Part shown: positions 1 to 17,080 of the stretch, piece by piece
Numbering within the stretch: position 1 is the first letter of the stretch
How the letters are laid out: every line of letters starts with the position of its first letter
Assembly (NCBI GenBank): GCA_964561155.1
Contig: CAZLOI010000002.1
Coordinates: 89,629 to 153,628, forward strand
Length of the DNA stretch: 64,000 nt
Reading direction: 5' to 3'
Source of the DNA: an uncultured Candidatus Saccharibacteria bacterium
GTDB taxonomy: Bacteria > Patescibacteriota > Dojkabacteria > J137
Program-made: the position numbers and the translations under genes
Notes under the pieces: model-generated
What the model saw: the letters and a program-made list of their open reading frames with translations, nothing else
Told to the model about the DNA's origin: nothing
Database searches by the model: none

Positions 1-358
1 CATCTTCCTCTTCACTGGATTTAATTCAAGAGACGAAGAAGGTACAAATCCTTTGGCTGTAATATTCGCTATAGTTGTAGCCCCACTTGCATCTTCCTTA
101 ATTCAATTCGCAATATCTAGAAACAGGGAATATTCTGCAGACGAAGCAGCTGCTTTCTATACAAAGAAACCAGAGTCTCTAGCCAATGCTTTAATAAAGA
201 TAGAGCAACTGGTACAGAGATACCCAATGAATGTTAACCCTGCTTTGAGTAGCCTATACATTCAGAATCCTTTCGGAGGAAGAGCTGTTATGGAGCTATT
301 CTCTACACATCCTTCAACTGAAAAGAGAGTAGAGAAACTGCTAAGTATGCAGGTGTAA
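1..358 (+). CDS. htpX: HtpX-like M48 zinc metalloprotease, C-terminal part (5' end lies outside the window; the track start at 53 is a TTG inside an open frame)
   Basis: The frame is open from nt 2 and carries the characteristic HtpX C-terminus ...AISRNREYSADEAAA...ALIKIEQ...STHPSTEKRVEKL. Confidence 0.7.
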   Translation, partial: IFLFTGFNSRDEEGTNPLAVIFAIVVAPLASSLIQFAISRNREYSADEAAAFYTKKPESLANALIKIEQLVQRYPMNVNPALSSLYIQNPFGGRAVMELFSTHPSTEKRVEKLLSMQV

Positions 359-399
359 AAGAGTTGTGGTTACTTTAATTGCTTCAATTGTTTTGATTG

Positions 400-1197
400 C
401 TATATCTGTATTTCCTTCTGCTTAAACACTCGGTACGAAAGAATAGATACTACTATTGTGAAGATAACCAGAACTATCATTCTTTCAGGATGTAGAGAGT
501 CTATAACCGATGTATTCTCTAGATCTAAGTAGAAGTATGGAGTTAGGTATTTAAGAAACTCAGGGCCTCCTTCTACTCTAGAAATGGTATCTACTATAAA
601 CCCTATGATTGTTAATCCAAGAACGGAGAATACAGCCATAGTTTCATTTTTAACAACACCTATTAGTAATCCTATTGATGAAAATACTAATTGAACAATT
701 AATGCTCCTAAGAAAGATGCTGCAAAGAAACTAATACTTACGTTGTCTTCTGTAGTAAATAGAGAAATAGAAACCAGAGTTACCACAAACGCTACTAGGT
801 TAATTAATATCATGTTGATTAAGAATGTAGAAAGCTTACCTAGGTAGATATTAAGCCTAGTTATGTTTCTAACAAATAACATTGTAATATTCTTGTTGTT
901 TATTTCCTTTCCAGTAATTCCTGCAATAGTAGCTGCACCCCATACAGAGTTCATAATAATAAAGAGGAAGAGAAACCTTCCATTAAAATATCCTTCGATA
1001 TCTGTGAATGAACTTGTACCAAATGCCTTCAATAGTTCTGGCGGAAGTGATTCTGTTAAGGATTTAATTGCCTCGGCACTTGATTTAACTGTTTCAAAGA
1101 AACCCATTAGGAATGCACACAAAGCACCAATTATAGATGCCCAAATAAAGACATTTCTAAAACTCTTTTTGAATTCAAACTTAATAACTTCTATCAT
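400..1197 (-). CDS. ABC-2 family transporter permease
   Basis: A polytopic hydrophobic protein whose stop overlaps the upstream ABC ATPase start by 4 nt. Confidence 0.6.
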   Translation of the reverse strand: MIEVIKFEFKKSFRNVFIWASIIGALCAFLMGFFETVKSSAEAIKSLTESLPPELLKAFGTSSFTDIEGYFNGRFLFLFIIMNSVWGAATIAGITGKEINNKNITMLFVRNITRLNIYLGKLSTFLINMILINLVAFVVTLVSISLFTTEDNVSISFFAASFLGALIVQLVFSSIGLLIGVVKNETMAVFSVLGLTIIGFIVDTISRVEGGPEFLKYLTPYFYLDLENTSVIDSLHPERMIVLVIFTIVVSILSYRVFKQKEIQI

Positions 1198-2081
1198 GAT
1201 TTATAATTCTTAAGAAATATCTCTTCTAGTGTTAGCTTTGCTACAAAGAAACTAAAGTAATTATTCTCTACAAATAAACTAATAACTTCCTTTGCACTAG
1301 TTGTTAGGAACTCATAATCTTCGTGTCCAACATTCTTAAACAAAGATACATGATCTAGTTTCTTAAGCTTTAGAAGTAATTCTTTTGGAATATCTTCAAC
1401 AAGAATCTTTCTATGATCGTTACTTAATACTTCTTTTCTTGTTGCAGTTGTTACTATCCTTGCATCTTTAATCATAACTATAGTATCTGCGATCTTCTCA
1501 ACTTCATTAAGAATGTGTGAAGAGAGTAGAACACTACCTCCTTTTTCTTTAACTTCAAGAATATCTTCGAATAACCTAGACTGAATTATTGGATCGAGAC
1601 TATTTGAAGGCTCATCCATTATTAAAAGAGTTGGATTATTTAGAAAACAATTTACAATCCCAACTTTCTTTTTGTTGCCAAGAGATAGTTGAGAGAACTT
1701 CTTTGTAATATCAAGCTCATACCTCTCGGAAAGTTCCTTAACTCTTTTTGTATTTAGACCAGAAAGTTTTGCAGAATAGTTTAATACACTTTCAATACGA
1801 ACATCATAGAATGCAGGTTCTCCAGGAAGGAATCCAATCCTATCTATATGTTTAAGTCGAGTACTTTCTGAATCCATAGTCTCTCCAAACATCTCTACAC
1901 TTCCTTTGTCAGCAACAGCAAGATTCATGATAAGTTTCATTGTTGTTGTCTTACCAGCTCCGTTGGGACCTAAGAAACCAATAATCTCTCCTTCTTTAAG
2001 GTCGATATTTATATCTAGAGCACCTCTGCCCATTCCGTAGTCTTTAGTTAATTCAATTGTTTTAAGTACAGATTTCTTCAT
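1194..2081 (-). CDS. ABC transporter ATP-binding protein
   Basis: Walker A GPNGAGKTTT, signature LSLGNKKKV and Walker B LLIMDEPSNSLD. Confidence 0.85.
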   Translation of the reverse strand: MKKSVLKTIELTKDYGMGRGALDINIDLKEGEIIGFLGPNGAGKTTTMKLIMNLAVADKGSVEMFGETMDSESTRLKHIDRIGFLPGEPAFYDVRIESVLNYSAKLSGLNTKRVKELSERYELDITKKFSQLSLGNKKKVGIVNCFLNNPTLLIMDEPSNSLDPIIQSRLFEDILEVKEKGGSVLLSSHILNEVEKIADTIVMIKDARIVTTATRKEVLSNDHRKILVEDIPKELLLKLKKLDHVSLFKNVGHEDYEFLTTSAKEVISLFVENNYFSFFVAKLTLEEIFLKNYKS

Positions 2082-2141
2082 ATTCGATATTTTACCTTAA
2101 TAACAATGTGCTGCATATACCTAGTCAGATAATCAATATGA

Positions 2142-3791
2142 CTAACGCTTTGTTCCAGCTTTAATTAATTCTAGGAACAATGGGTGCGCTTTAAGCAGGT
2201 AACTTTTATACTCAGGGTGAGCTTGAGTTCCTACAAAGAATGGATGTATCTTACGATCAAGTTCGATAAATTCAACTAGTTCTCCATCTACAGATGTTCC
2301 TGATATCCTCATACCATTCTTTTCAAACTCATCTCTATATACGTTATTAAATTCATATCTGTGCCTGTGCCTTTCAGATATTATAGACTTCTTTACATTC
2401 TTAAAAGCGTCATGCTTCTTGTACACATTAAATACAGTAGAGCCTTCTTTAAGTACACAATCCCATCCTCCAAGCCTTATAGTTCCTCCATATTGTTGCT
2501 TAGCCAAATATTCCTTTTGATTAGGCATTATATGAATAACATTGTTTTTGGTCTTCGCATCAATCTCTTCGGAGTTTGCATCTTTGTAACCTAGAACATT
2601 TCTAGCAAATTCTATAGCCGCCATCTGCATTCCGTAACATAGCCCTAAGTATGGAATCTTATTCTTACGTACATATTCAATAGCTTTAATCTTTCCTTCG
2701 CTACCTCGACTTCCCCAACCTTGAGGAACTATTACGCAGTCCAAGTCATTAAGTTCAGAAAGTTTTGATTTATCCTTTTCAAATACATCTGAAGCAATCA
2801 TTCTAATCTCTGGTTTAACTCCAAGCTCTCCCGCTGCATGCTTTATAGCTTCAAGAACTGATATGTATGTATCTAAGTGTGCAGTACTTCCATGAGTAAT
2901 GTACTTCCCAATTATTCCAATCTTTACATGTTTCTTTGAAGACTTTAATGTCTTAACAAAACTAGCAAGATCATCTACGTTTGATTTCTTAAGTTTCAAA
3001 TTAAATTTAGCAAGTACTTTCTTATCAAACTCTTCGTTATGGAATCTTAACGGTATTTCGTAGATACTTTCTAAATCTGGGTTATCTATAATATTAGTAA
3101 CATCAACGAAGCATCTCTTCGAAATGCTTTCCTTTCTTGGTTCATCTATTGGAATCTCGTTTCTAGTTATTATAAAGTCAGGAATGATTCCTACCTGTCT
3201 TAAGTTTGCCACAGCGTGCTGTGTTGGTTTTGTTTTTAATTCTCCAACAGATTTCAAGAAAGGAAGATAGGTAACCATAATGTAGATTGCTTCGTTTTCT
3301 TTCCCCATCTCTCTTGCAGCATGCAGGAAAGGAAGATTCTCTACATCTCCTGTTGTACCTCCTATTTCAACCATTACGAAGTCTTCATCGGTAATATTTT
3401 CTCTAATCATTGTTTTAATCTCATTTATCATATCTGGGAATATCTCTACATCGCGTCCTCCATAGCTCATTTGCCTTTCTTTGTTTATGATTCTTTCATA
3501 TACCTTTCCTGAAGTAATGTTGTTTCGTTTAGAAAATGTATGGTGAAGAAAGCGCTCGTAGTTACCTAAATCTTGATCAATTTCTCCTCCATCTTCTGTA
3601 ACATAGACTTCTCCGTGTTCTGCTGGACGCATTAGTCCTGCATCGATGTTTAGGTATGGATCAATCTTTACTGCAGTTACTTTGTAGCCTTGTTCTTTGA
3701 GAAGATATCCAATGGAAGCTGTAGCGATTCCTTTGCCTACGCCAGAGAGTACTCCACCGCATACAAATATAAATTTAGGATTTTTCGACAT
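2142..3791 (-). CDS. pyrG: CTP synthase
   Basis: N-terminus KFIFVCGGVLSGVGKGIATASIGYLLK; a glutamine amidotransferase C-terminal domain (GLCYGMQ); 549 aa. Confidence 0.95.
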   Translation of the reverse strand: MSKNPKFIFVCGGVLSGVGKGIATASIGYLLKEQGYKVTAVKIDPYLNIDAGLMRPAEHGEVYVTEDGGEIDQDLGNYERFLHHTFSKRNNITSGKVYERIINKERQMSYGGRDVEIFPDMINEIKTMIRENITDEDFVMVEIGGTTGDVENLPFLHAAREMGKENEAIYIMVTYLPFLKSVGELKTKPTQHAVANLRQVGIIPDFIITRNEIPIDEPRKESISKRCFVDVTNIIDNPDLESIYEIPLRFHNEEFDKKVLAKFNLKLKKSNVDDLASFVKTLKSSKKHVKIGIIGKYITHGSTAHLDTYISVLEAIKHAAGELGVKPEIRMIASDVFEKDKSKLSELNDLDCVIVPQGWGSRGSEGKIKAIEYVRKNKIPYLGLCYGMQMAAIEFARNVLGYKDANSEEIDAKTKNNVIHIMPNQKEYLAKQQYGGTIRLGGWDCVLKEGSTVFNVYKKHDAFKNVKKSIISERHRHRYEFNNVYRDEFEKNGMRISGTSVDGELVEFIELDRKIHPFFVGTQAHPEYKSYLLKAHPLFLELIKAGTKR

Positions 3792-3907
3792 AGTTGAGGA
3801 TGTTAAAACTATGTATTTAATCCTATTAAAGTTTAGGTCTTTTGAACAGGTGCTATAGTAAATATTTTTAATGGAAAGCTCGTATTCGCTATAACTGTTG
3901 TATAATC

Positions 3908-4555
3908 TTGGTTATGTCAGACAACAGTTTAGATCAACAACAAAACCTATTAACTTTATTACCTGCTAGAAAGGTTAGCTTGTCTCCTGAAGACAGAGAG
4001 ATTGAAACTTCGAAGCTTGTAGCTTTGCTTAAGGATGTAAACGCACATTTACAAGAAACTCAAGGTCTTCATCATTACGATTGGTACACAGAGAATGAAG
4101 GTATGAGGGTTAAAGAGAAGATTGCCAAAGGTAATACGTATATTATTGAATCAGAGAGCGGAGAAGTTATTGCTGCTTTTTCTATTGGAAGAGAAAAGCT
4201 ATTGTACCCAGGAGATGCTCAGTTCGATGACCGAGAAGCATATTATCTTTCTTTGATATGTGTTTCTCCAAAGTATCAAGGACATGGTATTGGATCTAAA
4301 CTACTTAAAAGCATTGAAAGCATTATTGCAATTGATGTTAAAACAAGAGGAGACGATAGATACTTGATTCGTTTTGATGCAAGACAGGAGTATGAGGAAC
4401 TAATTAAGTTCTATAAGAAAAGAGACTATGTTGAGATCGGTACTGTTACTGAGGACGAAGGTGAGCATTATATTCTTTTTGAGAAACTCACTTATATTCC
4501 AGATATTCCTCAACCATATAAGAAGTATCATCTCCCACAATCAAAGGAAGCTTGA
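3908..4555 (+). CDS. GNAT-family N-acetyltransferase with N-terminal extension
   Basis: An acetyl-CoA binding-like motif YQGHGIGSKLL lies in the C-terminal half. Confidence 0.45.
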   Translation: MVMSDNSLDQQQNLLTLLPARKVSLSPEDREIETSKLVALLKDVNAHLQETQGLHHYDWYTENEGMRVKEKIAKGNTYIIESESGEVIAAFSIGREKLLYPGDAQFDDREAYYLSLICVSPKYQGHGIGSKLLKSIESIIAIDVKTRGDDRYLIRFDARQEYEELIKFYKKRDYVEIGTVTEDEGEHYILFEKLTYIPDIPQPYKKYHLPQSKEA

Positions 4556-4590
4556 AGTCGAGTTAGCTAGTTAGTAGTTATATATCTTCC

Positions 4591-5043
4591 CTAGTTCTCA
4601 CAGATTTGAGTTTCTGAAGTGTACTTTTGTGTAAAGCTAAATTCATTCTCTGAACCGATGCATTCCTTCAATTGTTGTTCCCAAAGTTTCTTTAATGCCC
4701 AACCTAGTTTCCCGACTGTAACTAGTTCTTCACTATCTAGGGTTTTATATTGTAATTGTAGATCCAACATTTCAAGTAGCATTGCCATTTTTGTTCTTCT
4801 TTCGTCTGGATTCAAATACTTAGCTCGTATTTGAAGTATTTCAATTAGCATTCTATATCCTTGTGGTGTAAGGGAGCTAATGTCGTATTCAATTAGGTGT
4901 TGTGGGTGTACTGATTTCAACCATTCTATTATTTCGTTGGATGTATTGCTTTCTGTTTCTGCTTTGTCGAAGTATTGGTTATTTTGCATATTAGTTGAAT
5001 TTCTCTTTGTCTTTGAATTCATTTGACCAAGAGAATGCAGCAC
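4591..5043 (-). CDS. hypothetical protein (true start is probably the internal Met near 4989, just after the stop of the upstream ORF)
   Basis: A long ORF that overlaps 4991..5344 by 53 nt in another frame, with no recognisable domain. Confidence 0.35.
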   Translation of the reverse strand: MLHSLGQMNSKTKRNSTNMQNNQYFDKAETESNTSNEIIEWLKSVHPQHLIEYDISSLTPQGYRMLIEILQIRAKYLNPDERRTKMAMLLEMLDLQLQYKTLDSEELVTVGKLGWALKKLWEQQLKECIGSENEFSFTQKYTSETQICEN

Positions 5044-5344
5044 GTTTTGCGAATTGAATAGCTACTTTTAGGTGTTCGAATGATAGTCCTTTGTCTTTAC
5101 ATTTTTTAGCTATGTGTCTCCACATTCTTCTTTCAACACTTTCTTCAAGACAGTATGGGTACTGCGATCTTAGTTCAAGTATGTATATTATGAAGTATGC
5201 AATTCTTGGGTCTTCTACCTTCTGATATATTAGGTCCTGTAGTTGAGGTGGAACTACGTTACTTGTACCATTTTCTACTATGTTTTGTATCTTCTGGTCG
5301 TACCAGTTTAGTATTCTATTTGTATTGTTTCCATTACTATCCAT
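4991..5344 (-). CDS. hypothetical protein
   Basis: An ORF with no recognisable motif. Confidence 0.35.
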   Translation of the reverse strand: MDSNGNNTNRILNWYDQKIQNIVENGTSNVVPPQLQDLIYQKVEDPRIAYFIIYILELRSQYPYCLEESVERRMWRHIAKKCKDKGLSFEHLKVAIQFAKRAAFSWSNEFKDKEKFN

Positions 5345-5408
5345 GCACGGATTATATCAAACCTGTCTATATTTGAAAGGTTTTATGTTAAAATTACACG
5401 ACGATTAT

Positions 5409-5485
5409 GGTGGCCATAGCTCAGTCGGTAGAGCGCCAGTTTGTGGAACTGGATGTCGTGGGTTCGAGCCCCACTGGCTACCCCA
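5409..5485 (+). tRNA. tRNA-His (anticodon GTG) with encoded G-1 and 3' CCA
   Basis: G-1 then a GTGGCCA/TGGCTAC acceptor stem with one G-U pair; D-arm AGCTCAGTCGGTAGAGC; anticodon stem CCAGT/ACTGG with loop TTGTGGA (anticodon GTG); T-arm GTGGGTTCGAGCCCCAC; discriminator C73 pairing with G-1; CCA encoded. It is close to bacterial tRNA-His. Confidence 0.9.
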
Positions 5486-7100
5486 TTTGAATAACCCCCA
5501 TTTTTCCGTAAGTTTTGAAAGGCTCATTAAGCTCATAGGATATGACTTTACCTCCCTTTATAACAAAGTTTAAAAACACATTTCTGACTAGTTGATCAAT
5601 TAGGTGTAAATCTCTGGTTGATTTGATTACCTGTTCAGCATTATCAAAGGAGTTTAAGAAATTTTCATAAGGTATAATATTCTCGTTGCTATTTGCTTCA
5701 AGTCTGATTTTTTGTTCTTCTAATTTCTCTCTTTCAATATTCAATTCATAAATCTCATCACTAGTCTTTTTAATTTGACCATTAATTGGTTCAGCTTTAC
5801 TTGGCTCAATATTTCTTAAAGAATCAGCCAAAGCATCTAATCTATTTTTCAAGTTTTCGATCTTATTGTTGATATTTGATAGAGTTGAGTTAATAGACTC
5901 TGCTTGAGTTCCCCTAACCTGTGAATAATCATTCTTGAAATTCTCATATAATTCTTTGGTGATATTCAATTTAGATGAGATTACTTCAATTATAAAATCC
6001 ATTAGAACTTTACCTCTTATTGCGGATTTAATGCGTCGATTTTTATTTGAAATACATTCTTCGTCACTACAACCAACATAATAATACCGTTCACCTGTCT
6101 TGCTTCTAGCTTTGTAAGGAGTCATGTAATGATTACAATAGCCACACTTTGCCATTTTCTTGAATAACACATTTTTTATCTCCTGAGTTGGGTTAAATGC
6201 TCTTCGACCATCTATAGTTTCTCTAACATTAATAAACTCCTTAAATGTAATCATAGGCTCAAATTTGGGGTCTAGAGCTTTAAGATCAATGACATTATCC
6301 CCATGAATAAATATTCCCGCATAGAAAGGATCGGCAAATACCCGAGAACGTGTTGTGTCATTTAAATTTTTATATCCATTGTCGAATAGATATTTGCTAA
6401 TCATTCCAAGGGTTTTTCCTTCTGCAAGCATTAACCATGAGTTTCTGAAAATAGGGAAGAATTTAGGATCAGGTCTGTAAAATTTATCTACAATTTGATA
6501 ACCATGTTTTAATTTACCCATTGATTTTCCCTCACCAACCGTTCTATCGCTTCCTCTTGTAGTGTTAACTGAAATTCCATCCGAGTAATTCTTAGCCAAG
6601 ACAAATTGAATACCTAATGCCATTTTTCCACTTGGATCATTATTAAATGTGTATGATGAAAACTTTAAATCAGCTATCTTGCCTTCATCTAGCATATCAA
6701 TAATTACGCCTGCATCTCGCATATTTCGGGCTAGACGGTCTGGATGCCATGAAAGAATACTATTATATAGTTTGCCCTCTTCAATAGTCTTTAAAACTTC
6801 AGCAAATACACTTCGCATATTGGATTTATGGGCTGTTTCTTTCTCCTCTAAAATTCCATAAACCTTTAGATTATTGCGTATCGCAAATTCTTTACATTCC
6901 GCAATTTGATCGGCAACTGACCTTTCTTGTTTATCTTTACCTTTGGTAGAACGACGAGCATAAATTATATAAGTTTTCTCAACTTCAGTATTCACAATCC
7001 CTCGTCTAATTAGGTTTGAAGCTTTTAAAATGTTTGCATATTCTAAAACTTTTTCTTTATAGAAGTCTCTATCTTCGAATTGTTGTGAAATATTGCTCAT
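5478..7100 (-). mobile_element. large serine recombinase (integrase); the C-terminal codons overlap the tRNA-His 3' end
   Basis: An N-terminal resolvase domain with the catalytic Ser in YARRSTKGKDKQERSVADQ and SWHPDRLARN; a recombinase domain; a zinc ribbon CGYCNHY...YYVGCSDEEC; and a C-terminal coiled coil (LKNRLDALADSL). 540 aa. Confidence 0.88.
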
Positions 7101-7119
7101 GAGCAGATATTATCATTCT

Positions 7120-7311
7120 TTACAGGAAAAAAGCACCCTTTGCATCTTTAAGAATATATGGATTTTTAGAAGAAGTTTTCGGAAGAGAATTTCTATTTAC
7201 TTTGATAGACTTAATGCTTTGAAATGTTGAAATGACCTCAAAAAGAGATAATTGTTTTAAATTATTCTTAATTATTCTTTTAGTTTTTGGCTTTGAATTT
7301 TTGACCTTCAT
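7120..7311 (-). CDS. small basic protein upstream of the recombinase, a possible recombination directionality factor
   Basis: 63 aa and Lys/Arg rich (KPKTKRIIKNNLKQ), sitting 20 nt upstream of the recombinase start on the same strand. Confidence 0.25.
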   Translation of the reverse strand: MKVKNSKPKTKRIIKNNLKQLSLFEVISTFQSIKSIKVNRNSLPKTSSKNPYILKDAKGAFFL

Positions 7312-7381
7312 TATGCCTTAGTTTATGCAAAAAGCATGAAACTATCTTTTTTGAAGGGAGATAAAGGGATTTAAGGGGAGA

Positions 7382-8020
7382 TTATAGTGTTATTGGATTT
7401 TTAAATTTTATTGAGGATGTCTTATCACTAATATCAAAAAAAGCAGCCTTTAAACCACGTCTGAAGCCCAAATTTTCTACTATTTTATCGAAGCTTTGAG
7501 TAATTTCCTTATGAGTTTCTTCTTCTATTTCCTTTTTAGAAAATAGTTTATTTGGATTGTCATAAAGGAATATAAAAATAGCTTCATTAGTTCCGCCAAA
7601 ATCGGGTTTAGCAATGTCTATTTTTCCGTTCAACATTATTCTTCTATCTGAGTTAAATTCAATAAAAAAGTTATTAATTGCTGGTAATTTCTCCTCACTA
7701 AGGTATTGCTTATGCTTCAAAAACTCTTTTTCAAAGTAATCCACTTCAATATTACTCACCTCAATATAGTTTTCTGGTTGACCAATGTGAAGATAAAACG
7801 ATTTGAGAATAGGAGAGGGTTTACCAATATACACATTTTCAACTTTTAGCTTGTGAAGGTTTTGAAACTGAATCAATATATCTCTTATTTCATGTTCTTC
7901 TATGGAATTGAGAGGTCTTTTCTCAGTAAAAAGTATAAACTTTCTATTCTCAATGTGTAATTTCTTAGCCTCAAGAATTGAATGAATTATAATGGCTTTC
8001 TTTTCTTCATACATCAACAT
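7382..8020 (-). CDS. hypothetical protein (island cargo)
   Basis: A 212 aa ORF with no recognisable domain. Confidence 0.4.
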   Translation of the reverse strand: MLMYEEKKAIIIHSILEAKKLHIENRKFILFTEKRPLNSIEEHEIRDILIQFQNLHKLKVENVYIGKPSPILKSFYLHIGQPENYIEVSNIEVDYFEKEFLKHKQYLSEEKLPAINNFFIEFNSDRRIMLNGKIDIAKPDFGGTNEAIFIFLYDNPNKLFSKKEIEEETHKEITQSFDKIVENLGFRRGLKAAFFDISDKTSSIKFKNPITL

Positions 8021-8111
8021 AATCTATTTTTTAAAAACATTGAATTATACTTCTGATTAGAAATATAGCGCAAATCATAGTAGAATCAATCAATAATTTC
8101 GAATTTATAAA

Positions 8112-8390
8112 ATGGGTAAAAATCAAGGACTGAACAATTTAACTAAAGGTTTTAATAGAAGGCTAACTCAAAGTGAAGTTTCTAGAGGTTATCTTTTTAT
8201 TTCAAAAGATAGAGCAATATTGAAGATTTTAGACGAGGGCTTTAAAGTTAGAATAGGAGAGATTGAGCTGAAGAATAAAAAATTGGATAGTTCAGGAAGA
8301 ATCACTATTGGGAAGGTGTTATCTTCAAAACTTGCAGAAAAAGAAATTAGACTGAAATTAGAGAAGAATAATCTTCTTATAACGTATTGA
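8112..8390 (+). CDS. small hypothetical protein, possibly AbrB/MazE-like
   Basis: 92 aa; GRITIGKVL resembles a swapped-hairpin DNA-binding motif. It is the only plus-strand gene in the island. Confidence 0.25.
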   Translation: MGKNQGLNNLTKGFNRRLTQSEVSRGYLFISKDRAILKILDEGFKVRIGEIELKNKKLDSSGRITIGKVLSSKLAEKEIRLKLEKNNLLITY

Positions 8391-8413
8391 TATTTCAATA
8401 CTCACAATTATAA

Positions 8414-9175
8414 TCATGTATTCTGAGATTTGAATAACTCCACTGGGTTTATTTTAAATTGAAGCATTTTTGCTGACTCTCTTCCTCCGTCACCACCTTT
8501 TCGTTGCATAGTGATTTTTCCAATTCTTAAATTCCCTTGCTTTGTAATTGTCACATCTCCATTTCCAAACAAATTTAGTGCATGATTTATAGATTTTAAT
8601 GTCCATTTTGTAGTTTCATCTATTTTCAAAGCTACCATCATCCACCCCGCAGATAATTTTCCTCTTCCTTTTATAATATCGCTGACAATAAGAAATTTAT
8701 TTTCTGTGAAGAAGTCTAGAATATCATTCCTCACATCTTCATTTAATTCATCCAAGAACATTCTTCGTGAGTCTCTTACATCTGTTTTATTTGGTGCAAG
8801 CTCACCAGTAAAGTATTTTAAACCTGTTGCAATACTCTCAGGTAAAGTCCACATTTCAATATATTTCTCTACTTTCCTTTTATCTATTTGATTGAATCCC
8901 TGAGGATTGCTCACTAATTTAATAGAGATATTTTCTGCAGAAATTGCCTCTTTCAAAAAAATAGAAATTTGAACTTGAACGTCAGTTTTAAATCCATGAA
9001 TTTTAATCGCAAGTATCTTCTCAATCTCTTCAAGTTTGTAGCCCATTATAGATAACCACTCTTTGGCGTCTTCATCTTCTACCCAATTATTAAATTTTTC
9101 AACAATATCATCTTCATTACTAAAACCTGCCTTTGCAGTTTTTGAACCTAGTAGAATTAAGTCTTTTGTGTCCAT
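8414..9175 (-). CDS. candidate Type II restriction endonuclease (partner of the adjacent m5C methyltransferase)
   Basis: 253 aa, placed immediately downstream of the methyltransferase with its start abutting the methyltransferase stop. No recognisable family; the call rests on position alone. Confidence 0.4.
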   Translation of the reverse strand: MDTKDLILLGSKTAKAGFSNEDDIVEKFNNWVEDEDAKEWLSIMGYKLEEIEKILAIKIHGFKTDVQVQISIFLKEAISAENISIKLVSNPQGFNQIDKRKVEKYIEMWTLPESIATGLKYFTGELAPNKTDVRDSRRMFLDELNEDVRNDILDFFTENKFLIVSDIIKGRGKLSAGWMMVALKIDETTKWTLKSINHALNLFGNGDVTITKQGNLRIGKITMQRKGGDGGRESAKMLQFKINPVELFKSQNT

Positions 9176-10156
9176 TTAATTTAAAGTAAGAATTATTTGT
9201 TGAAATATATTTTTTAAAACATTTATTGCCACACTATTTCCGAACTGCTTATAAGCTTGCGATTTACTTACTACAATTTTATAGTCCTTTGGGAAACCCA
9301 TAATATTTGCACATTCCCTAGGGCTTAGTTTTCTAATTTTACCATCAACTAAGTAAGCACCTGTTTTACTGGCAATCCCACCACCATGAGCCGACAAAGT
9401 GATTGCATGCCCTAAATCGCTGTAAATTCGTTCACCTTGACCTCCATTATTAATTGTTCCTAATCTTATAGGTTTTTGTGGGTAATTGCCAAAAATATCT
9501 GGTTCTACCGCTTTATCATTCATTTTAATTCTTATATCTGTTCTTGTAATTTCATATGGACTATTATCATCATTCAATTCTAAATAATCTCTTAGCTTAG
9601 TATTAATATTAAGAGGGGAGGGAAATTTAAATTCTTCTACTCCTAAATCTTTTCTAAATCCAATAATATAAATTCTTTCTCTTGTAGTTGGCAATCCATA
9701 ATCTCCTGCATTTAAAACTTGATGAAAGACATTATAATTTAATTCCTTGAGGGTATTAGTCACGGTTTCTAAAGTTTTTCCATTATCATGTTTTGCAAAG
9801 TTTTTAACATTTTCTAAAAATAACACTTCTGGTTTATGGTGTTTTACAATTCTCGCAACATCAAAAAAGAGAGTACCTCGTGTATCGTTAAATCCCAATC
9901 TTTTGCCCGAAATACTGAAAGCTTGACAAGGAAAGCCACCACATAAAATGGAATGCTTAGGAATAGTTTTTTCGTCTACTTTCGTAATATCCCCATCAGG
10001 AGTTTCGCCAAAGTTTGCTTGATAAGTTGTTTGTGCCTGTTTATCCCACTCATTTGAATATACACATTCAAGACCAAAAGAATCTAATGCTATTCGGAAG
10101 CCCCCTATACCTGCAAATAGGTCGATATATTTAGCTTTTTTAACATCAAATTTCAT
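9176..10156 (-). CDS. DNA (cytosine-5)-methyltransferase
   Basis: Motif I FAGIGGF, motif IV GGFPCQAFS, motif VI FLENVKNF and motif X QFGNSV. Confidence 0.9.
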   Translation of the reverse strand: MKFDVKKAKYIDLFAGIGGFRIALDSFGLECVYSNEWDKQAQTTYQANFGETPDGDITKVDEKTIPKHSILCGGFPCQAFSISGKRLGFNDTRGTLFFDVARIVKHHKPEVLFLENVKNFAKHDNGKTLETVTNTLKELNYNVFHQVLNAGDYGLPTTRERIYIIGFRKDLGVEEFKFPSPLNINTKLRDYLELNDDNSPYEITRTDIRIKMNDKAVEPDIFGNYPQKPIRLGTINNGGQGERIYSDLGHAITLSAHGGGIASKTGAYLVDGKIRKLSPRECANIMGFPKDYKIVVSKSQAYKQFGNSVAINVLKNIFQQIILTLN

Positions 10157-10219
10157 ATGGATTTATATTACGTATAACAAAGAATTATACATTATAATAT
10201 TTAAATAAATTCTAGAGGT

Positions 10220-10654
10220 CTAAGGATTTAATTTTTGTTTCTTTAATTCGTTTAAATCATACTCACTTTCAAATTCTTCAAATATGAAATTCAAATCTTG
10301 AGTTTCTTCATCTTTCTCATTACTTATTCTTGCTTTGCTTACAAGTCTATCAACCCAATCCAATAGGAATTTATCACTTGAAAAGGATTTGGATACATAT
10401 TCAAATGCAACTAAATCCTTTACCTTAAACTTCTTTTTATTCTTTTTCATTTGCTCCTTTAATTGTTCAAATTCATCTATAGTTAATTCCTGATATTCAA
10501 TTATTTTGTCTAAAAATATCTGAGATTGTTTTTTCCTTTGCCAACCTTCAGCCTTAGAGCTTGGGCTAGGCTGATTAGTTGTGCTGAATTGAGTAGATTT
10601 ACCGTTTTTTACGCCGTTTTTCATATGATAATTATAAATTGCAATCTTTCTCAT
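10220..10654 (-). CDS. hypothetical protein (island cargo)
   Basis: A 144 aa ORF, charged and Lys-rich, with no recognisable domain. Confidence 0.35.
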   Translation of the reverse strand: MRKIAIYNYHMKNGVKNGKSTQFSTTNQPSPSSKAEGWQRKKQSQIFLDKIIEYQELTIDEFEQLKEQMKKNKKKFKVKDLVAFEYVSKSFSSDKFLLDWVDRLVSKARISNEKDEETQDLNFIFEEFESEYDLNELKKQKLNP

Positions 10655-10669
10655 GAAGAAAATAAAAAT

Positions 10670-12907
10670 TTATACTTTCACAGGAACTTTGGATTGTAAT
10701 TTATTGTACAAATTATTTTGTGCGATGATATTATACAAATCAATCCTACTGTCTTCATCTGGGCTAATATCTTGAACAGTGATTACAAGAGCATAATTTT
10801 GTTGGTAATTTACGTCAGTAATCCCTCTCGTTGTCATATCCATCCATAACTCCCAATCACCTCCTTGATAACTTTGACAATGTTTTTCAAAGCTAAGTAT
10901 TGGATTCCATCTTTTTCTATATTGAAATTTAGATTTTTTTATAAGATCGCCTCCAATTAAGTTACCTTTTGAATTTTTATAATGTAAATTCAACTGAATA
11001 TCCACAGAACAATAATCTTGAAGTGCTGTATTTGAAACTTCGGGTAGATATACTAGAGTACCTCTTATTTTTATTTTTTTACCTTTACCCTCTAATTCTT
11101 TAGGCACGGTAAATTTTAATTTATGCTTTGTATATTTTGCCGTTTTAGAATCGACAGCAGGCTCTCCAATTAAACCTGTAAAAATAAAAGTTGCCGATGA
11201 ATTGACACAATCAATAGCACTTGTTAAATCGGGGATTCCAAATCCAAGAAGTCGATTTAGTTCAAAACCCATCCATTTATCATCTGCCTGAATTGAATAG
11301 GAAGCTGAATGAATAAGTAATGCTTTTACTAATTCAGCAGGAGGTTCATTCCATTGTCTTGTTGTATCTAAATATGCAAAGAGTTGAGCAGCAATTTGGC
11401 TTACCAAGGGTGCTGCAAAACTTGTTCCGACGGCTTCAGCTATACCATCTTCTTTAATTGATAACCCTTTAACACCTATTCCCCCATATTGGTCATATTT
11501 ATCAGTATTCCCTCCAAAATGTACCAAATCAGGTTTAAAATCCCCTATTAAACCTGACCTTGTAAAAGGAGAAGGTTCATTTATATTTGCAATTGATCGA
11601 GTTGAATGTGTATCTGCTACTGAACCAACTACTACAGTGTTGAGACTATCCGCTGGAGGAGTAATAATGGATTCCTTATCCAAAAAATATTTTGGATATT
11701 CTCCCGTTATTTCCTTTAAATTACCTGAGGAAATTACAAATAAAACATTATATTTTTTTGCTAATGAATCAAGCTCCATTGTGATGAAGCTGTGCTTAGG
11801 TCTAGAAGGCCAATCATAATCACCATTATTAATTGACAGATTGAAAACTTTAGCCGTTTTATAATATTTTTTGACAGCAGTCGTAATCGAATCTACTAAA
11901 AATTTTTCTTTTATAAGTGTATGATTGCTAAGTTTTACATCAATCACTTTAACTTTGGCATTTAATTGACCCTGTTGAATCTGATCCTCAATATCATTAC
12001 CAAAAATTGCTCTTGAAGCAACAAAAGTTCCATGCGTTAAATCCTCTGAATCCTTATCGTTAATACAATCTAATTGATCTATTACGAGTCCATTTAAAAC
12101 TTTTAAATTGGCTATGCCCGAATCTAAAATGACTACTTTGGCGTCAGAATCAGGCTCTACAACTTCAATATCTGATAGCTTGTAATTGGATGAGGGTATT
12201 TGAGATATTCCAAAATCAAGTGATTTTTCAACTCTAAGAATTGGATTATTAGGAAGTGGATTTGTAATTTCTTCTACTAATTTATGGTATAGATCTCCAT
12301 ATAATAATTTGGCTCCAGCATTTGAGGTAAAAAAGCTCAGATTCGTTCCATACTTTTTGTTTATAATTCCACAAATCTTATTTCCCTCAAATTCAGGAAT
12401 AGAGTTGTAAAGATATATAAATCCAGTGAATTTTGATAGTTCAAACGTATCTGAATCTATAATATCCTCCCTATTTAATGGGATAAACTCTTCTATAGTA
12501 GATAGAAAGGCTCCGTCTCTGGGATTTGATTGCAAACTCAGTTGAGATATATTTTGCTGAAAAGACTTAAGATTTTTTACATTTGTTGTCGCTAAAAAAG
12601 TTGTTTCATTTTGTTGACCCTGAAAATCAATATTGAATTTTTTTGTAAAAGCCGTGGGTTGTGCGGATTTACTTGTAGCTTTTTTATTTAATTTAATTTT
12701 GAAAAAGACTGTATCTTTATTCACCGAATAATCACTTACGTGTTGCTCAGAAGAAAATATCAATTTTGATAATTCTGTAGTTCTTTTTCTTTTGAAGTTA
12801 TCAAAATCATTAGCTTTTACAAATAATGTAGGTTCACCACCACCACCTTTTTTATCTTGAATTAAATTACTGTTTGGAATTACAAATACAGGATTATTTA
12901 TTATCAT
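10670..12907 (-). CDS. subtilase (peptidase S8) with large N- and C-terminal extensions and no signal peptide
   Basis: Catalytic triad contexts VVILDSGIAN (Asp), HGTFVASRA (His) and GTSFAAPLVS (Ser). About 250 aa of unique sequence precede the catalytic domain and about 230 aa follow it. The start overlaps the AAA gene stop by 14 nt. Confidence 0.85.
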   Translation of the reverse strand: MIINNPVFVIPNSNLIQDKKGGGGEPTLFVKANDFDNFKRKRTTELSKLIFSSEQHVSDYSVNKDTVFFKIKLNKKATSKSAQPTAFTKKFNIDFQGQQNETTFLATTNVKNLKSFQQNISQLSLQSNPRDGAFLSTIEEFIPLNREDIIDSDTFELSKFTGFIYLYNSIPEFEGNKICGIINKKYGTNLSFFTSNAGAKLLYGDLYHKLVEEITNPLPNNPILRVEKSLDFGISQIPSSNYKLSDIEVVEPDSDAKVVILDSGIANLKVLNGLVIDQLDCINDKDSEDLTHGTFVASRAIFGNDIEDQIQQGQLNAKVKVIDVKLSNHTLIKEKFLVDSITTAVKKYYKTAKVFNLSINNGDYDWPSRPKHSFITMELDSLAKKYNVLFVISSGNLKEITGEYPKYFLDKESIITPPADSLNTVVVGSVADTHSTRSIANINEPSPFTRSGLIGDFKPDLVHFGGNTDKYDQYGGIGVKGLSIKEDGIAEAVGTSFAAPLVSQIAAQLFAYLDTTRQWNEPPAELVKALLIHSASYSIQADDKWMGFELNRLLGFGIPDLTSAIDCVNSSATFIFTGLIGEPAVDSKTAKYTKHKLKFTVPKELEGKGKKIKIRGTLVYLPEVSNTALQDYCSVDIQLNLHYKNSKGNLIGGDLIKKSKFQYRKRWNPILSFEKHCQSYQGGDWELWMDMTTRGITDVNYQQNYALVITVQDISPDEDSRIDLYNIIAQNNLYNKLQSKVPVKV

Positions 12908-14018
12908 ACTTGCTGTTTAAAATATTAGATAAAGTTGAATCAGGAATCCCAGTTATATTTTCTAAATATTTAAAAGTAAACAATTTGTCATCATTCTTTC
13001 TAAGAATCTTAACTATTTCTTTTAAGTTTTTTCTGTCCATCTTATCTTTAATATTATATTTGTTGGTTTGCAATTTAAATTCTGCAACATTTTTTAATAA
13101 TAAATTGTCTAGATTTACTTTTTTATCATTTAAGATCCACATTCTTAAACTTCTATTTATTAAATTTCTTAAAGATGATCCAGAAATTTGTCCACTAATC
13201 TCAACTAGTGTAGAAATATTTTTAATCATATAATCCTTTAAATATAATTCAAAAAACTTTCTTATAGCTTCTTTATCAAACAAATCTAAATTTAGTGTAT
13301 ATGTAAATCTTCTTTTAATTGCAGAATCCAAAAGATGGTCATGGTTAGTTGCTGCAACAAGAATGGTTGAGCTATTAAGTTCATCTATGTTCTGCAAAAG
13401 AACTGTCACAACTCTTTTTAATTCACCTAATTCATTAGAATCATCTCTTTTCTTTCCTAATGCATCGAACTCGTCCAAAAATAAAATGCACGGAGATTTA
13501 TTCGCTTCAGTAAAAACTTTTCTGATATTTCGACCCGTATCACCTAAATATGAAGATATAATTCCATCCAAATAAACATGAAGTATGGGTAAATTAAGTT
13601 CTCCCGCTAAAATATAAGAAAATAGAGTTTTTCCTGTTCCTGGTGGACCATAAAGTAATATTTTATTTTCCAAGGGCACATTATTCTCTATTAATAGTTT
13701 TCTCTTCTTAAAGTTTTTAATTACTTCATCTAAAAGTGAAGTGTTTTCTTCATTTAGAATGATATAGCTTTTATTAATTTCAGACTCCCTAAATTCAAAT
13801 AACTTTGAGTCTGAATTATTTATACTAGAATTTGAAAAATCCAAATCTTTATTTTCAGATTGAGGTATAGACAGTAGCTTTCTTAAATTTTTTGCTAAAT
13901 TATATTGCCCTGTATTTTCAATATCTGAAATGTATTTCTGTAGAAATTTATCAGCAGTATGTATATTCCCTTTCTTATACATTTCTGCTACTTTAAGAAG
14001 AATGTCAGTTTTAGTCAT
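12894..14018 (-). CDS. classical-clade AAA+ ATPase with MIT-like N-terminal helical domain
   Basis: Walker A LLYGPPGTGKTLF, Walker B ILFLDEFDALG and a sensor-1 region ATNHDHLLD. It has a helical N-terminus of about 100 aa. Confidence 0.85.
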   Translation of the reverse strand: MTKTDILLKVAEMYKKGNIHTADKFLQKYISDIENTGQYNLAKNLRKLLSIPQSENKDLDFSNSSINNSDSKLFEFRESEINKSYIILNEENTSLLDEVIKNFKKRKLLIENNVPLENKILLYGPPGTGKTLFSYILAGELNLPILHVYLDGIISSYLGDTGRNIRKVFTEANKSPCILFLDEFDALGKKRDDSNELGELKRVVTVLLQNIDELNSSTILVAATNHDHLLDSAIKRRFTYTLNLDLFDKEAIRKFFELYLKDYMIKNISTLVEISGQISGSSLRNLINRSLRMWILNDKKVNLDNLLLKNVAEFKLQTNKYNIKDKMDRKNLKEIVKILRKNDDKLFTFKYLENITGIPDSTLSNILNSKYDNK

Positions 14019-14417
14019 AAATATATCTTATCCCAAACCTAGTAAAACTTCAAACTTTGGGATAATTCGAGCTGATATATATATGGGATGATATTAATTC
14101 TAGTCTATCTTTATCCGATGATAAAGTTTAAAGTCGTCATGTCTAAGATAATGTTAAATAATTAATTCTATATTATAAAATCAATTTCCTTGGTTTTACC
14201 TCCCTTCGCTTCGATAACTGCCAATTCATACCTATGCTCAACAATAGTGATTTGGTTCAATACAGTCAAATCAATCCAAGATTCCCAATTTGAAAAGTTT
14301 GAAGTATAATTCTGTGTTGACCCCAAAATGAAACATCCTAAACTACACAAAGTTATGTAGCTTTGACATATCCCTAATATATTTTTAAAATAGAGCATTA
14401 CTTATTAACGTATCTAC

Positions 14418-14813
14418 ATGGTTGAAGTAAATATAGTTGCTGTTTTAGTTGCTGCTTTATCCGCTTTCTTTCTAGGCTATATTTGGTACACAGTAGTGTT
14501 TGTGAAACCATGGAAGGAAGAAATTGGAATGGGAGAGAATAGCGATGCTGTAGCTCCAAATCTGGGTATGTTATTAATAGGATCATTTGTTCTAGAAATA
14601 ATCATGGCATTTGTTATGGCACGATTCTTTATAGGTAACGCAGATGCTTTGGGAGGATTAAAAGCAGGTTTCTTAATTGGATTACCAGTTGTTGCTTTTG
14701 CATTCGGAGTTAATTACTTATTCGAAGGAAGATCATTAAAGCATTGGTTAATTAATGCTGCATACTATACAGTTGTATTCTCTGTAATGGGATTGATACT
14801 AGGAGCAATGTAA
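14418..14813 (+). CDS. DUF1761-like small membrane protein (paralog of 54640..55062)
   Basis: Four transmembrane segments; shares GY(I/L)WY...K(P/K)W(K/M)(E/K)E(I/V)G with the 54640..55062 product. Confidence 0.5.
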   Translation: MVEVNIVAVLVAALSAFFLGYIWYTVVFVKPWKEEIGMGENSDAVAPNLGMLLIGSFVLEIIMAFVMARFFIGNADALGGLKAGFLIGLPVVAFAFGVNYLFEGRSLKHWLINAAYYTVVFSVMGLILGAM

Positions 14814-14841
14814 ATCTTTCATTATCCATGGGATGATTGTT

Positions 14842-14880
14842 AACACTTAGAGTAGAGGACTGCCCTAAGTGTTTTTTGTT
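14842..14880 (+). terminator. intrinsic terminator candidate
   Basis: AACACTTAG...CTAAGTGTT stem followed by TTTTTT, 29 nt after the stop of 14418..14813. Confidence 0.45.
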
Positions 14881-15268
14881 TCTCTTAGAATACTTTGATA
14901 CTAGTTATATCAATTGTGAATGATCCTCCATAATAGAATCTAGTGTGTATTGTATTTGTTCCTTGAGTTAGATTGAAACCTATAAATGCTGATAGATTGA
15001 GATTCTAAAGGGATTTAATATTTGGAGCTTTACAAGCATATGTGTTTTGTAATTATTGCATTTTGCCCTAAAGTCTACTCATATTCCAAGAATGACACAT
15101 ACAAATTAAAAGTGATACATGATTACAAAAATGGATTGCAATGTTGAATTTATCTATGCCAGACAGTTGTTATTGACATACATAATAAGTATATCTATTA
15201 TGTGAATATACTAAACAAGAACCAAACTTTTATACGTTACCATAGATATTTCTTAAGCAATTCTTCAT

Positions 15269-17020
15269 ATGAGATCAAAGAAATACCTAATACTTGGAGT
15301 CACAATATTCCTTGGATTAAGTAGTGTTGCAATATTTTTAATAATGAACCAGAACCTTGCGATAGAGGATTCAGAAGCAAGTAACTCAGCAGATTTGGAA
15401 GAAGCTGTAGCTGCATGGCCTGCATCCTCAGACTTAGTAACACTAGCCGCAGTTGGAACAAACCAGCAGACTTGTTCGGATTTAAGTGGTCCAGCTGTGT
15501 TGGTAAGTAGCGATCTTCCTACATTCTTAAAGAAAGGAGAAGCTTTCACTGGAACATTAAAAATATTGAACTGTTCTAAAGCTACATGGAAAAAGTATAA
15601 CGGGAGTAGAGGACATAACTTTGGTCCTGTTAATCCTCAAGAGAACAATACATTTGGTCCAACTAGATATGCACTACCAAATGATGTAGCACCAGGAACT
15701 TCCGTAGATCTACAAGTAACTGGAACAGCGCCTTCTACAAACGGAAGTTACGTATTTCAACTAGGATTAGTTAAGGAATCTGTAAAATGGATTACACCAT
15801 ATCTATCTCCTCATATATTTATCGTTGGAGACTACAAGACATGTGATACAGCAAGAGCATTAGTGAATACAACTCAGGATGCAAAGCAAACACTACAAAC
15901 ATGTATAGATGCAGCTCCAGTGGGATCTACAGTTGTACTACCAGCTGGTGTGTACACAGTCTCAGGTCAAGTTCGAGTTAAAAGTACAATCAGTTTGGTG
16001 TCTGAAAAAAGTGTATCTACGCGAGCTGCTTTTACATGTGATACAGAACCCTACACCAACTGTGCTGTTATAAAGGCAGGAGCTACCTATAGGGGATCTG
16101 GAACTACAGAGCCAGAAATAGCTGTGCTAAGAGTTGCGAGTGAAAACGGAGGAAATGTTGATAACTTTACAATGGTAAATATTGTAATCGATGGAAACAT
16201 TACAGAACGGCTCGCTGCTTCAACTGGTAAGTGTCTTGCTGGAGTATCTAGAGACTTTAATATCTCTGCAAACAGCTATGGATTTAAAATGTTTAGAAGT
16301 GCATCTGTTAATGCAGTCTGCGGTACTGGACTATCTCTTTTTGGAGGAACATCTACCGAAGGTGGAGGATCAGTGATCGCATTCAATCTATTTGCTAAAA
16401 ATGGAACACATCACCAAGATGACGGCAATCATGGACCATGGGCAGATGGTGCATCTATTGTAGGGAGAAACATGTATGTATTCAACAATACTTTCTATAA
16501 CAATACAGATGTTGATCTAATCTTCTGGTACAGCAAAGGAAGTCATATACATTACAATAGACTAAACCACGACGATCAAGACTACTACAGTTATGCAACA
16601 TTAATGTTAACTTCAAATGTTAATGATCCAATTGGAACAGATCACTCTGGAACTGTAATATCATTTAATAAAATAAAGTGTGGAAGAGCATGTGGTTTTG
16701 GAATAGTTGTTGGAGGAAAGAATTGGTCTCCTGATGCTACAAAATCTTTAGGAGGAACAGTTAAGAACAATACAATTCAAGGAACATATCAAGCAATAAG
16801 TGTTGCTGGTGCAGGAACAGCAGAAGCTCCAGTCATTATCTCTGGTAACAAGTTTGTGAATACAAGATATATTAAGAACAGTTGTGGAGAAACAACAACA
16901 GACCTTGTATTTAACCCAGGTAGTGTAGTCTCACATGACCTAACTAGTAAAGTTAATAGCAAGGGTTGGAACTGTACCTTACCTAGCTGTAACTTTGATC
17001 AGAACTTCTGTGCGAAGTAG
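15269..17020 (+). CDS. secreted or anchored right-handed parallel beta-helix protein (pectate-lyase/tailspike-like fold)
   Basis: An N-terminal signal/anchor (ILGVTIFLGLSSVAIFLI), then repeated N/G-rich turns typical of PbH1 repeats (NNTFYNNTDVDLIF, GTVKNNTIQG, ISGNKFVNT). Confidence 0.55.
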   Translation: MRSKKYLILGVTIFLGLSSVAIFLIMNQNLAIEDSEASNSADLEEAVAAWPASSDLVTLAAVGTNQQTCSDLSGPAVLVSSDLPTFLKKGEAFTGTLKILNCSKATWKKYNGSRGHNFGPVNPQENNTFGPTRYALPNDVAPGTSVDLQVTGTAPSTNGSYVFQLGLVKESVKWITPYLSPHIFIVGDYKTCDTARALVNTTQDAKQTLQTCIDAAPVGSTVVLPAGVYTVSGQVRVKSTISLVSEKSVSTRAAFTCDTEPYTNCAVIKAGATYRGSGTTEPEIAVLRVASENGGNVDNFTMVNIVIDGNITERLAASTGKCLAGVSRDFNISANSYGFKMFRSASVNAVCGTGLSLFGGTSTEGGGSVIAFNLFAKNGTHHQDDGNHGPWADGASIVGRNMYVFNNTFYNNTDVDLIFWYSKGSHIHYNRLNHDDQDYYSYATLMLTSNVNDPIGTDHSGTVISFNKIKCGRACGFGIVVGGKNWSPDATKSLGGTVKNNTIQGTYQAISVAGAGTAEAPVIISGNKFVNTRYIKNSCGETTTDLVFNPGSVVSHDLTSKVNSKGWNCTLPSCNFDQNFCAK

Positions 17021-17080
17021 TATTAGAAAAAGTAAAGATAGATAGAATCGAGTATAGAACTAGGATAAATAGAATTGAAA

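Follow-up and report, generated by a model that had tools for sequence, protein, structure and literature searches.

The locus analysed here raises the question of whether an overlapping pair of genes, one for an AAA+ ATPase and one for a subtilisin-like protease of family S8, represents a new antiphage system or a member of a known one. The genes lie in a stretch of 64,000 nucleotides (referred to below as the window) of contig CAZLOI010000002.1, which belongs to the GenBank assembly GCA_964561155.1 of an uncultured Candidatus Saccharibacteria bacterium. An initial annotation, made from the letters without database searches, had described them as an ATPase–protease module that was not a named defence system. 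We conclude that they are very probably an intact, divergent copy of the IetAS toxin–antitoxin and abortive-infection system, carried by a serine-recombinase island beside a tRNA-His gene. The system is already known, the window pair is a divergent member of it, and its function would be that of its better-studied relatives.

Identity of the gene pair

The upstream gene, ietA (12894-14018, minus strand; 374 aa), encodes the putative AAA+ ATPase antitoxin and was defined by its open reading frame (ORF), profile matches, conserved motifs and an AlphaFold2 (AF2) model. The second gene, ietS (10670-12907, minus strand; 745 aa), encodes the putative toxin, a cytoplasmic S8 subtilase, and was defined by its ORF, profile matches and conserved residues. 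The stop of ietA and the start of ietS overlap by 14 nt (12894-12907, minus strand), which points to translational coupling. Both reading frames and their overlap were as initially annotated.

We compared both proteins with the profiles of PADLOC; the results are matches to these profiles, not system calls from PADLOC itself. IetS matched the IetS model PDLC02197 with an E value of 1.3e-96, its residues 4-744 aligning with profile positions 5-748 of 749, and it also matched seven more IetS sub-models. IetA matched the IetA model PDLC02196 (4e-95; residues 3-370 on profile positions 3-371 of 374) and three more IetA sub-models. The best matches in NCBIfam, collinear and full length, were 'S8 family anti-phage peptidase IteS' and 'anti-phage ATPase IteA', IteA and IteS being the NCBI names for what PADLOC calls IetA and IetS. 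Full-length matches of both proteins to the IetA/IetS profiles place the pair in the named IetAS family. The pair was also matched over its full length by the phage-borne PHROG families phrog_3964 and phrog_3757, indicating that phages carry it too. The closest relatives of any kind were 39-49% identical and came from Patescibacteria-type metagenome genomes; among the named relatives, those nearest to IetS and IetA were in genomes of Moraniibacteriota, Uhrbacteria and Saccharibacteria. A neighbouring CTP synthase gene also points, though not unambiguously, to an uncultivated lineage of this kind.

IetAS was first described on the Agrobacterium plasmid pTiC58 as a protease toxin with an ATPase antitoxin (Yamamoto et al. 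2009, as cited in PMC13069673 and PMC8562856), and it was described as an anti-phage system in 2020 (Gao et al. 2020, as cited in PMC13069673 and bioRxiv 10.1101/2022.08.27.505566). With this toxin–antitoxin description of 2009, the anti-phage description of 2020 and full-length PADLOC matches, the claim that the pair has no name must be withdrawn. IetAS stabilises its plasmid, protease activity is needed for defence, and ietA mutants could not be constructed (PMC13069673). In B. subtilis, the IetAS of B. cereus causes abortive infection and is toxic upon expression of the SPbeta protein YosG (bioRxiv 10.1101/2022.08.27.505566). SgiAT, from Salmonella Genomic Island 1 (SGI1), is a functional toxin–antitoxin system that stabilises the island and in which SgiA neutralises the toxicity of SgiT (PMC5006074). 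TA132/133 of Mycoplasma is another, and there deletion of the ATPase alone is lethal (PMC8562856). Protection against phages by family members has been shown in E. coli and B. subtilis, the members for which resistance through abortive infection was demonstrated being those of E. coli and B. cereus. The co-localisation of IetAS with type III restriction-modification systems in E. coli is non-random. Abortive infection, which the initial annotation had suggested, is a known outcome in other members of the family and may be expected of the window pair by analogy. By contrast, the suggestion that the ATPase licenses the protease runs against the published genetics, in which the protease is toxic alone and the ATPase neutralises it. 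Our literature search found no structural or mechanistic study of IetAS.

The motifs that had been reported for the two proteins were all present. Those of IetA are GPPGTGKT (residue 124), the YLG pore loop (157), (F)LDEFD (181), ATNH (223) and RRF (236). In 47 IetA homologs, K130 of Walker A, D182/E183 of Walker B, N225 of sensor 1 and R236/R237 were invariant, and alignment showed that the YLG pore loop and the Arg fingers are also conserved among homologs. The Pfam AAA domain matched IetA with an E value of 1.5e-31. The motifs of IetS are DSG (262), HGT(F) (292) and GTSFAAP (494). D262, N396 and S496 were invariant in both of the alignments that we made (16 and 50 sequences, with homologs down to about 22% identity), while H292 was invariant in the alignment of 16 sequences and nearly so (at least 90%) in that of 50. 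Conservation thus identifies D262, H292 and S496 as the predicted subtilase triad and N396 as the predicted oxyanion-hole Asn.

The N-terminus of IetS, MIINNPVFVIPNSNLIQDKKGGGGE, contains no charged n-region with a hydrophobic core and no signal-like segment, as judged by a hydropathy check only and not by SignalP. The most hydrophobic stretch of 19 residues in the protein is the strand of the catalytic Asp. This agrees with the initial annotation, which had found no signal peptide on the subtilase. IetS is accordingly predicted to be cytoplasmic. Its catalytic residues are intact, and so are the ATPase motifs of IetA.

The Pfam Peptidase_S8 domain spans only residues 255-557 of IetS, so the N- and C-terminal extensions that had been described are real. 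They are not unique, as had also been claimed. The IetS family comprised 745 clusters (50% identity) at E<=1e-10, and nearly all members were 730-790 aa long; with this uniform size and the collinear profile matches, the extensions must be family-wide. Pfam scans of the N-terminal 250 aa and of the C-terminal 231 aa gave nothing useful, the copy of Pfam that was used being one without PF27160 and PF27210. Many IetS homologs (P0003, P0066 and others, as well as that of locus L004; L numbers denote the loci fetched for comparison) are annotated with these two entries, PF27160 (Y4kK_N) and PF27210, some of the matches being faint. The N-terminal region of the IetS family therefore already has curated Pfam models.

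Further evidence on the pair was obtained by a genome scan, in which we took one genome per species and used an alignment of closer homologs as seed. The scan gave 80 loci from many phyla. In every locus with upstream sequence (76/76), the gene immediately before ietS, on its strand, encoded an IetA homolog; in the remaining 4 of the 80, the protease gene was at a contig edge. The junction between the two genes was a 1-17 nt overlap or a gap of a few nt in 64 of these 76 loci, and the other 12 junctions were attributed to naive start-codon choice or probable frameshifts. The same arrangement was found in six of six annotated contexts. Two of these are plasmids, on which the gene for an ATP-binding protein lies directly 5' of the S8 gene (named iteS in one of them), and four are metagenomic contexts of closer homologs with the AAA gene directly upstream on the same strand. 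The order ietA-then-ietS is strictly conserved across phyla. The annotated contexts of homologs were mobile or defence-related; in L004, ietAS adjoins a DpnII-type restriction-modification system and a serine recombinase. The initial description of a two-gene, translationally coupled ATPase–protease conflict module, beside a restriction-modification system on a mobile island, was thus borne out, and the neighbourhood of its homologs agrees with it. We also observed in L003 a block of phage structural genes (1-6505; tape measure, tail completion and major capsid) with ietAS at its edge, which fits carriage by a prophage.

The island around ietAS

Comparison of the window by blastn with two close relatives (L088 and L089; about 87% nucleotide identity) showed that homology runs to position 5487 and resumes at 17079. 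The intervening 11.6 kb (5488-17078) is a strain-specific accessory stretch, which carries ietAS and starts at the 3' end of tRNA-His. As this stretch is absent from both relatives, the pair is accessory and not a conserved housekeeping locus. The GC content is lower across the island, and the low-GC part ends near 14000. The pair had been placed at the end of the island, but the strain-specific stretch extends past it.

The landmark of the insertion site is the tRNA-His gene (GTG; 5410-5485, plus strand), which was found by ARAGORN and with the Rfam tRNA model (67.8 bits); a scan of the window with Rfam found only this tRNA. Next to it lies the gene of a large serine recombinase (5478-7100, minus strand; Pfam Resolvase, 1.2e-18, and Zn_ribbon_recom), the stop end of which shares 8 nt (5478-5485) with the 3' end of the tRNA-His gene. 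The initial annotation had spoken of an integrase-bearing island; a recombinase is indeed present, but it is a large serine recombinase and not a tyrosine integrase. Homologous serine recombinases were found near ietAS in three other loci (L004, L005/L006 and L010). There were no convincing flanking direct repeats (att sites) at the ends of the island; their absence is expected for a serine recombinase. The locus is thus a case of IetAS carried by a tRNA-linked, serine-recombinase island, in an uncultivated low-GC organism that is probably a Patescibacteria/CPR bacterium.

Downstream of ietS come, in this order, a 144-aa ORF, a C5 cytosine methylase (9176-10156, minus strand; Pfam DNA_methylase, 9.4e-100; PADLOC MTase_II, 5.4e-120), a R.HinP1I-like endonuclease (8414-9175, minus strand; Pfam R-HINP1I, 2.6e-78; PADLOC REase_II, 1.5e-96), a 212-aa ORF and the serine recombinase. 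The methylase and the endonuclease form a type II restriction-modification pair (8414-10156, minus strand), which is a separate defence system and not part of IetAS. The PADLOC profiles detected nothing in the island beyond this pair and IetAS. The 144-aa ORF (10220-10654) is rich in Lys and Glu, is on the same strand as ietS and begins 16 nt past its stop. It had no match in Pfam (apart from a sub-threshold hit), PADLOC, NCBIfam or PHROG, and we rejected it as a conserved third component of the system since no homolog was found beside ietAS elsewhere. Upstream of ietA there is non-coding DNA, followed on the other strand by a DUF1761 gene (14418-14813). A 583-aa ORF (15269-17020) has a hydrophobic N-terminal segment and a GC content typical of the genome, and gave no Pfam or PADLOC match. 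Both of these genes are within the strain-specific stretch, beyond its low-GC part.

Protein architecture, inverted repeat and proposed mechanism

The AF2 model of IetA (predicted local distance difference test, pLDDT, of 88) shows a three-helix bundle (residues 3-50), a disordered linker (55-68), an AAA+ core (about 90-300) and a putative C-terminal helix-turn-helix (HTH; about 326-368). The helical N-terminal domain is thus of about 50 aa and followed by the disordered linker, instead of the roughly 100 aa initially estimated. A MIT domain in the N-terminus of IetA was rejected as unsupported by sequence. No Pfam MIT match was obtained at E<=10, and the only matches of residues 1-110 at this threshold were to TPR_6 (0.081) and SocA_Panacea (0.13). 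The modelled three-helix bundle is generic and compatible with many folds. With Foldseek, the best matches of the model were the AAA domains of Rpt/PAN, FtsH, Rix7/NVL and Vps4. No solved IetA structure was found, only generic AAA+ proteins being matched.

The model of IetA ends in three short helices (326-368), and its C-terminal tail contains the conserved motif LExITGIPxSTL. The tails of IetA family members matched many helix-turn-helix families (best E value, 1.7e-6). A profile of these tails retrieved from the PDB mostly HTH DNA-binding proteins, including Lrp/AsnC-type regulators, SinR and HigA, and two IetA homologs carry a precomputed HTH_38 domain.

The model of IetS (pLDDT, 89; predicted template modelling score, pTM, 0.92) is one compact body. 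It consists of two beta-alpha-beta-beta-alpha-beta modules (about 66-142 and 159-228), the catalytic domain (255-565) and a beta-sandwich (about 570-715). The C-terminal extension is of about 190 aa rather than about 230 aa, as had been estimated. From the model, we infer that the N-terminal modules may be propeptide-like. Searches by sequence detected no IetS relative with a solved structure.

An inverted repeat with perfect 10-nt arms, TTATCCCAAA and TTTGGGATAA, separated by 18 nt, is present at 14028-14065 and ends 10 nt 5' of the ATG of ietA. In the window (64 kb), the pattern ATCCMAA-N18-22-TTKGGAT has a single occurrence, versus 0.01 expected. The same pattern occurs five times in the fetched loci, always directly upstream of ietA (L003 6782-6815, L008 2790-2822, L009 2839-2871, L012 2830-2862 and L014 2034-2067), and a looser form was found in L004, L010, L011 and L015, which include Oligoflexia and Nitrospiraceae genomes. 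The consensus across the window and these nine related loci is ATCC(A/C)AA-N20-21-TTGGAT, and in several loci the right arm and a TATAAT-like hexamer overlap. In the Moraniibacteriota locus L008 there is also a second copy of the motif (9061-9093; ATCCCAA-N20-TTGGAT), about 6 kb downstream of ietA. Scans for promoters and terminators did no better than chance in the AT-rich DNA of the window. Type II antitoxins repress their own operons. The conserved repeat, together with the HTH tail, suggests that IetA does so too, and the repeat is probably an operator for this tail.

The mechanism that we propose applies the published logic of other members to the window pair. IetS would be a toxic cytoplasmic subtilase and IetA would neutralise it. 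IetA would be a hexameric, pore-loop protein remodeller of the proteasomal/FtsH/Cdc48 type, which may spend ATP on keeping IetS latent, and IetS would be a pro-subtilase that stays unprocessed, the propeptide-like modules of the protein being packed against its catalytic domain. A further role of IetA may be to repress the operon, its C-terminal helix-turn-helix acting on the inverted repeat upstream of ietA. IetS would be set free by a phage trigger, or when IetA is no longer supplied or active; by cleaving proteins that the cell cannot do without, it would halt the cell ahead of phage release. More specifically, we tentatively suggest, as a proposal that falls somewhat short of an even chance, that IetA is a three-part antitoxin (helical N-domain, AAA+ motor and HTH) that autoregulates via the promoter-overlapping repeat, and that IetS is a latent pro-subtilase with its propeptide-like modules as the target of the motor. 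This wiring did not appear in the IetAS papers that we examined, which describe the mechanism as unknown. Should it prove correct, it would offer a concrete, testable account of how one ATPase can silence the protease gene and also hold back the protein.

Alternative explanations and comparison with known systems

Several points weigh against the assignment of the pair to IetAS and against the mechanism outlined above. The NCBIfam scores were under the equivalog cut-offs (242 versus 900 bits for IteS, 294 versus 510 bits for IteA). IetS is only about 22-28% identical to the experimentally tested members, so that triggers and targets may differ, and the function proposed for the window copy is borrowed from other members. 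The mechanism of IetAS, including how IetA neutralises IetS, 'remains unknown' as of 2026 (PMC13069673), and the idea of latency through a propeptide derives from a predicted structure. The C-terminus of the window IetA, taken alone, gave no significant HTH match, the assignment being made via alignment to family members. Finally, the inverted repeat occurred in the Patescibacteria-type clade and in two further lineages, and proteobacterial loci such as L001 and L002 lacked it. As to the NCBIfam scores, the models are narrow, same-function ones, and scores under their cut-offs mark a divergent clade, not another family.

One may ask whether the pair is mainly an addiction module, which stabilises the tRNA-His island by post-segregational killing, with phage defence absent or secondary. 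The founding members were found in this way, IetAS stabilising pTiC58 and SgiAT stabilising SGI1. The window pair, moreover, is on a recombinase-bearing accessory island, and related loci repeatedly have serine recombinases near ietAS. However, such a role is not exclusive with phage defence. Family members protect against phages in E. coli and B. subtilis. The pair is also beside a restriction-modification system, both in the window and in L004, and is found in the prophage-like structural cluster of L003 and in phage protein families. We therefore regard a mainly addictive role as possible but somewhat doubtful. A different proposal would be an ATP-dependent two-component protease, in which the AAA+ ring would recognise a substrate from phage or host, unfold it and pass it on to the subtilase, the protease needing the ATPase. 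This is unlikely, although IetA possesses Arg fingers and a classical pore loop (YLG), the folds nearest to it are those of the proteasomal ATPases and FtsH, which are unfoldases, and the two genes are tightly coupled in translation. The genetics point the other way: deletion of the antitoxin alone is lethal in Mycoplasma, ietA mutants are not constructible and SgiA neutralises SgiT. Subtilases are, furthermore, monomeric open-cleft enzymes that need no feeder, and the model of IetS is a compact globule (pTM 0.92).

That the proteins are a housekeeping quality-control pair or a secreted nutritional protease with its partner, unrelated to conflict, might be argued from their generic domains (Peptidase_S8 and AAA). 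We consider this hardly credible. The absence of the pair at the same locus in two close relatives effectively refutes it, and the N-terminus of IetS is not signal-like. IetA scores far below the cut-offs of FtsH, PAN, CdvC and Cdc48, both proteins match IetA/IetS profiles over their full length, and the annotated contexts of the homologs are mobile or defence-related. The identification of the pair as a divergent IetAS, most likely functioning as a toxin–antitoxin and abortive-infection system, is the one that we retain. It matters little as a discovery, as the family is named and experimentally validated. It indicates that a reading of sequence only can rediscover a true defence module, yet misjudge its novelty without profile searches. 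Modest new leads come from the HTH tail, the operator-like repeat and the propeptide-like modules, which offer experimental handles on the mechanism of the family.

Among known systems, the ATP-dependent proteases are distant from the pair. IetA was under all of their cut-offs (FtsH, 95 versus 600 bits; PAN, 93 versus 500; ClpX, 24 versus 371; Lon, 14.5 versus 679), and IetS has a monomer-type S8 fold, unlike the self-compartmentalised peptidase of these machines. With the MIT-domain AAA+ proteins (Vps4, CdvC, katanin and spastin), IetA shares a classical-clade core that follows a small helical N-domain and a flexible linker. It scored 85 bits with the CdvC model, versus a cut-off of 650, and it has an HTH C-terminus instead of the C-terminal helix of the Vps4 type. 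Its partner is a protease, whereas that of the MIT-domain ATPases is ESCRT-III.

The ietHAS system shares the IetA–IetS core and the need for protease activity and adds a SNF2-type helicase, IetH, while no helicase gene adjoins the window pair. In Mycoplasma mycoides, TA132/133 consists of an AAA-ATPase of 353 aa and a subtilisin-like protease of 757 aa, and thus has the same architecture and similar sizes. It is chromosomal, with signs of horizontal transfer, in a low-GC host with a minimal genome, and the roles of its two proteins have been shown experimentally; lineage and genetic code differ from those of the window, and the likeness described here is one of architecture and size. SgiAT of SGI1 resembles the window pair in having an AAA-ATPase antitoxin 5' of a subtilase toxin on an integrative element. 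Its host island and integration site are different, and SgiA and SgiT are 50% and 36% identical to the IetA and IetS of pTiC58, from which the window pair is far more distant. IetAS itself has the same two proteins as the window pair, in the same order and orientation, with the same tight coupling, catalytic triad, ATPase motifs and mobile or defence context. With about 22-28% identity to enterobacterial and plasmid IetS, and scores under the NCBIfam equivalog cut-offs, the window pair stands within this family as a divergent clade.

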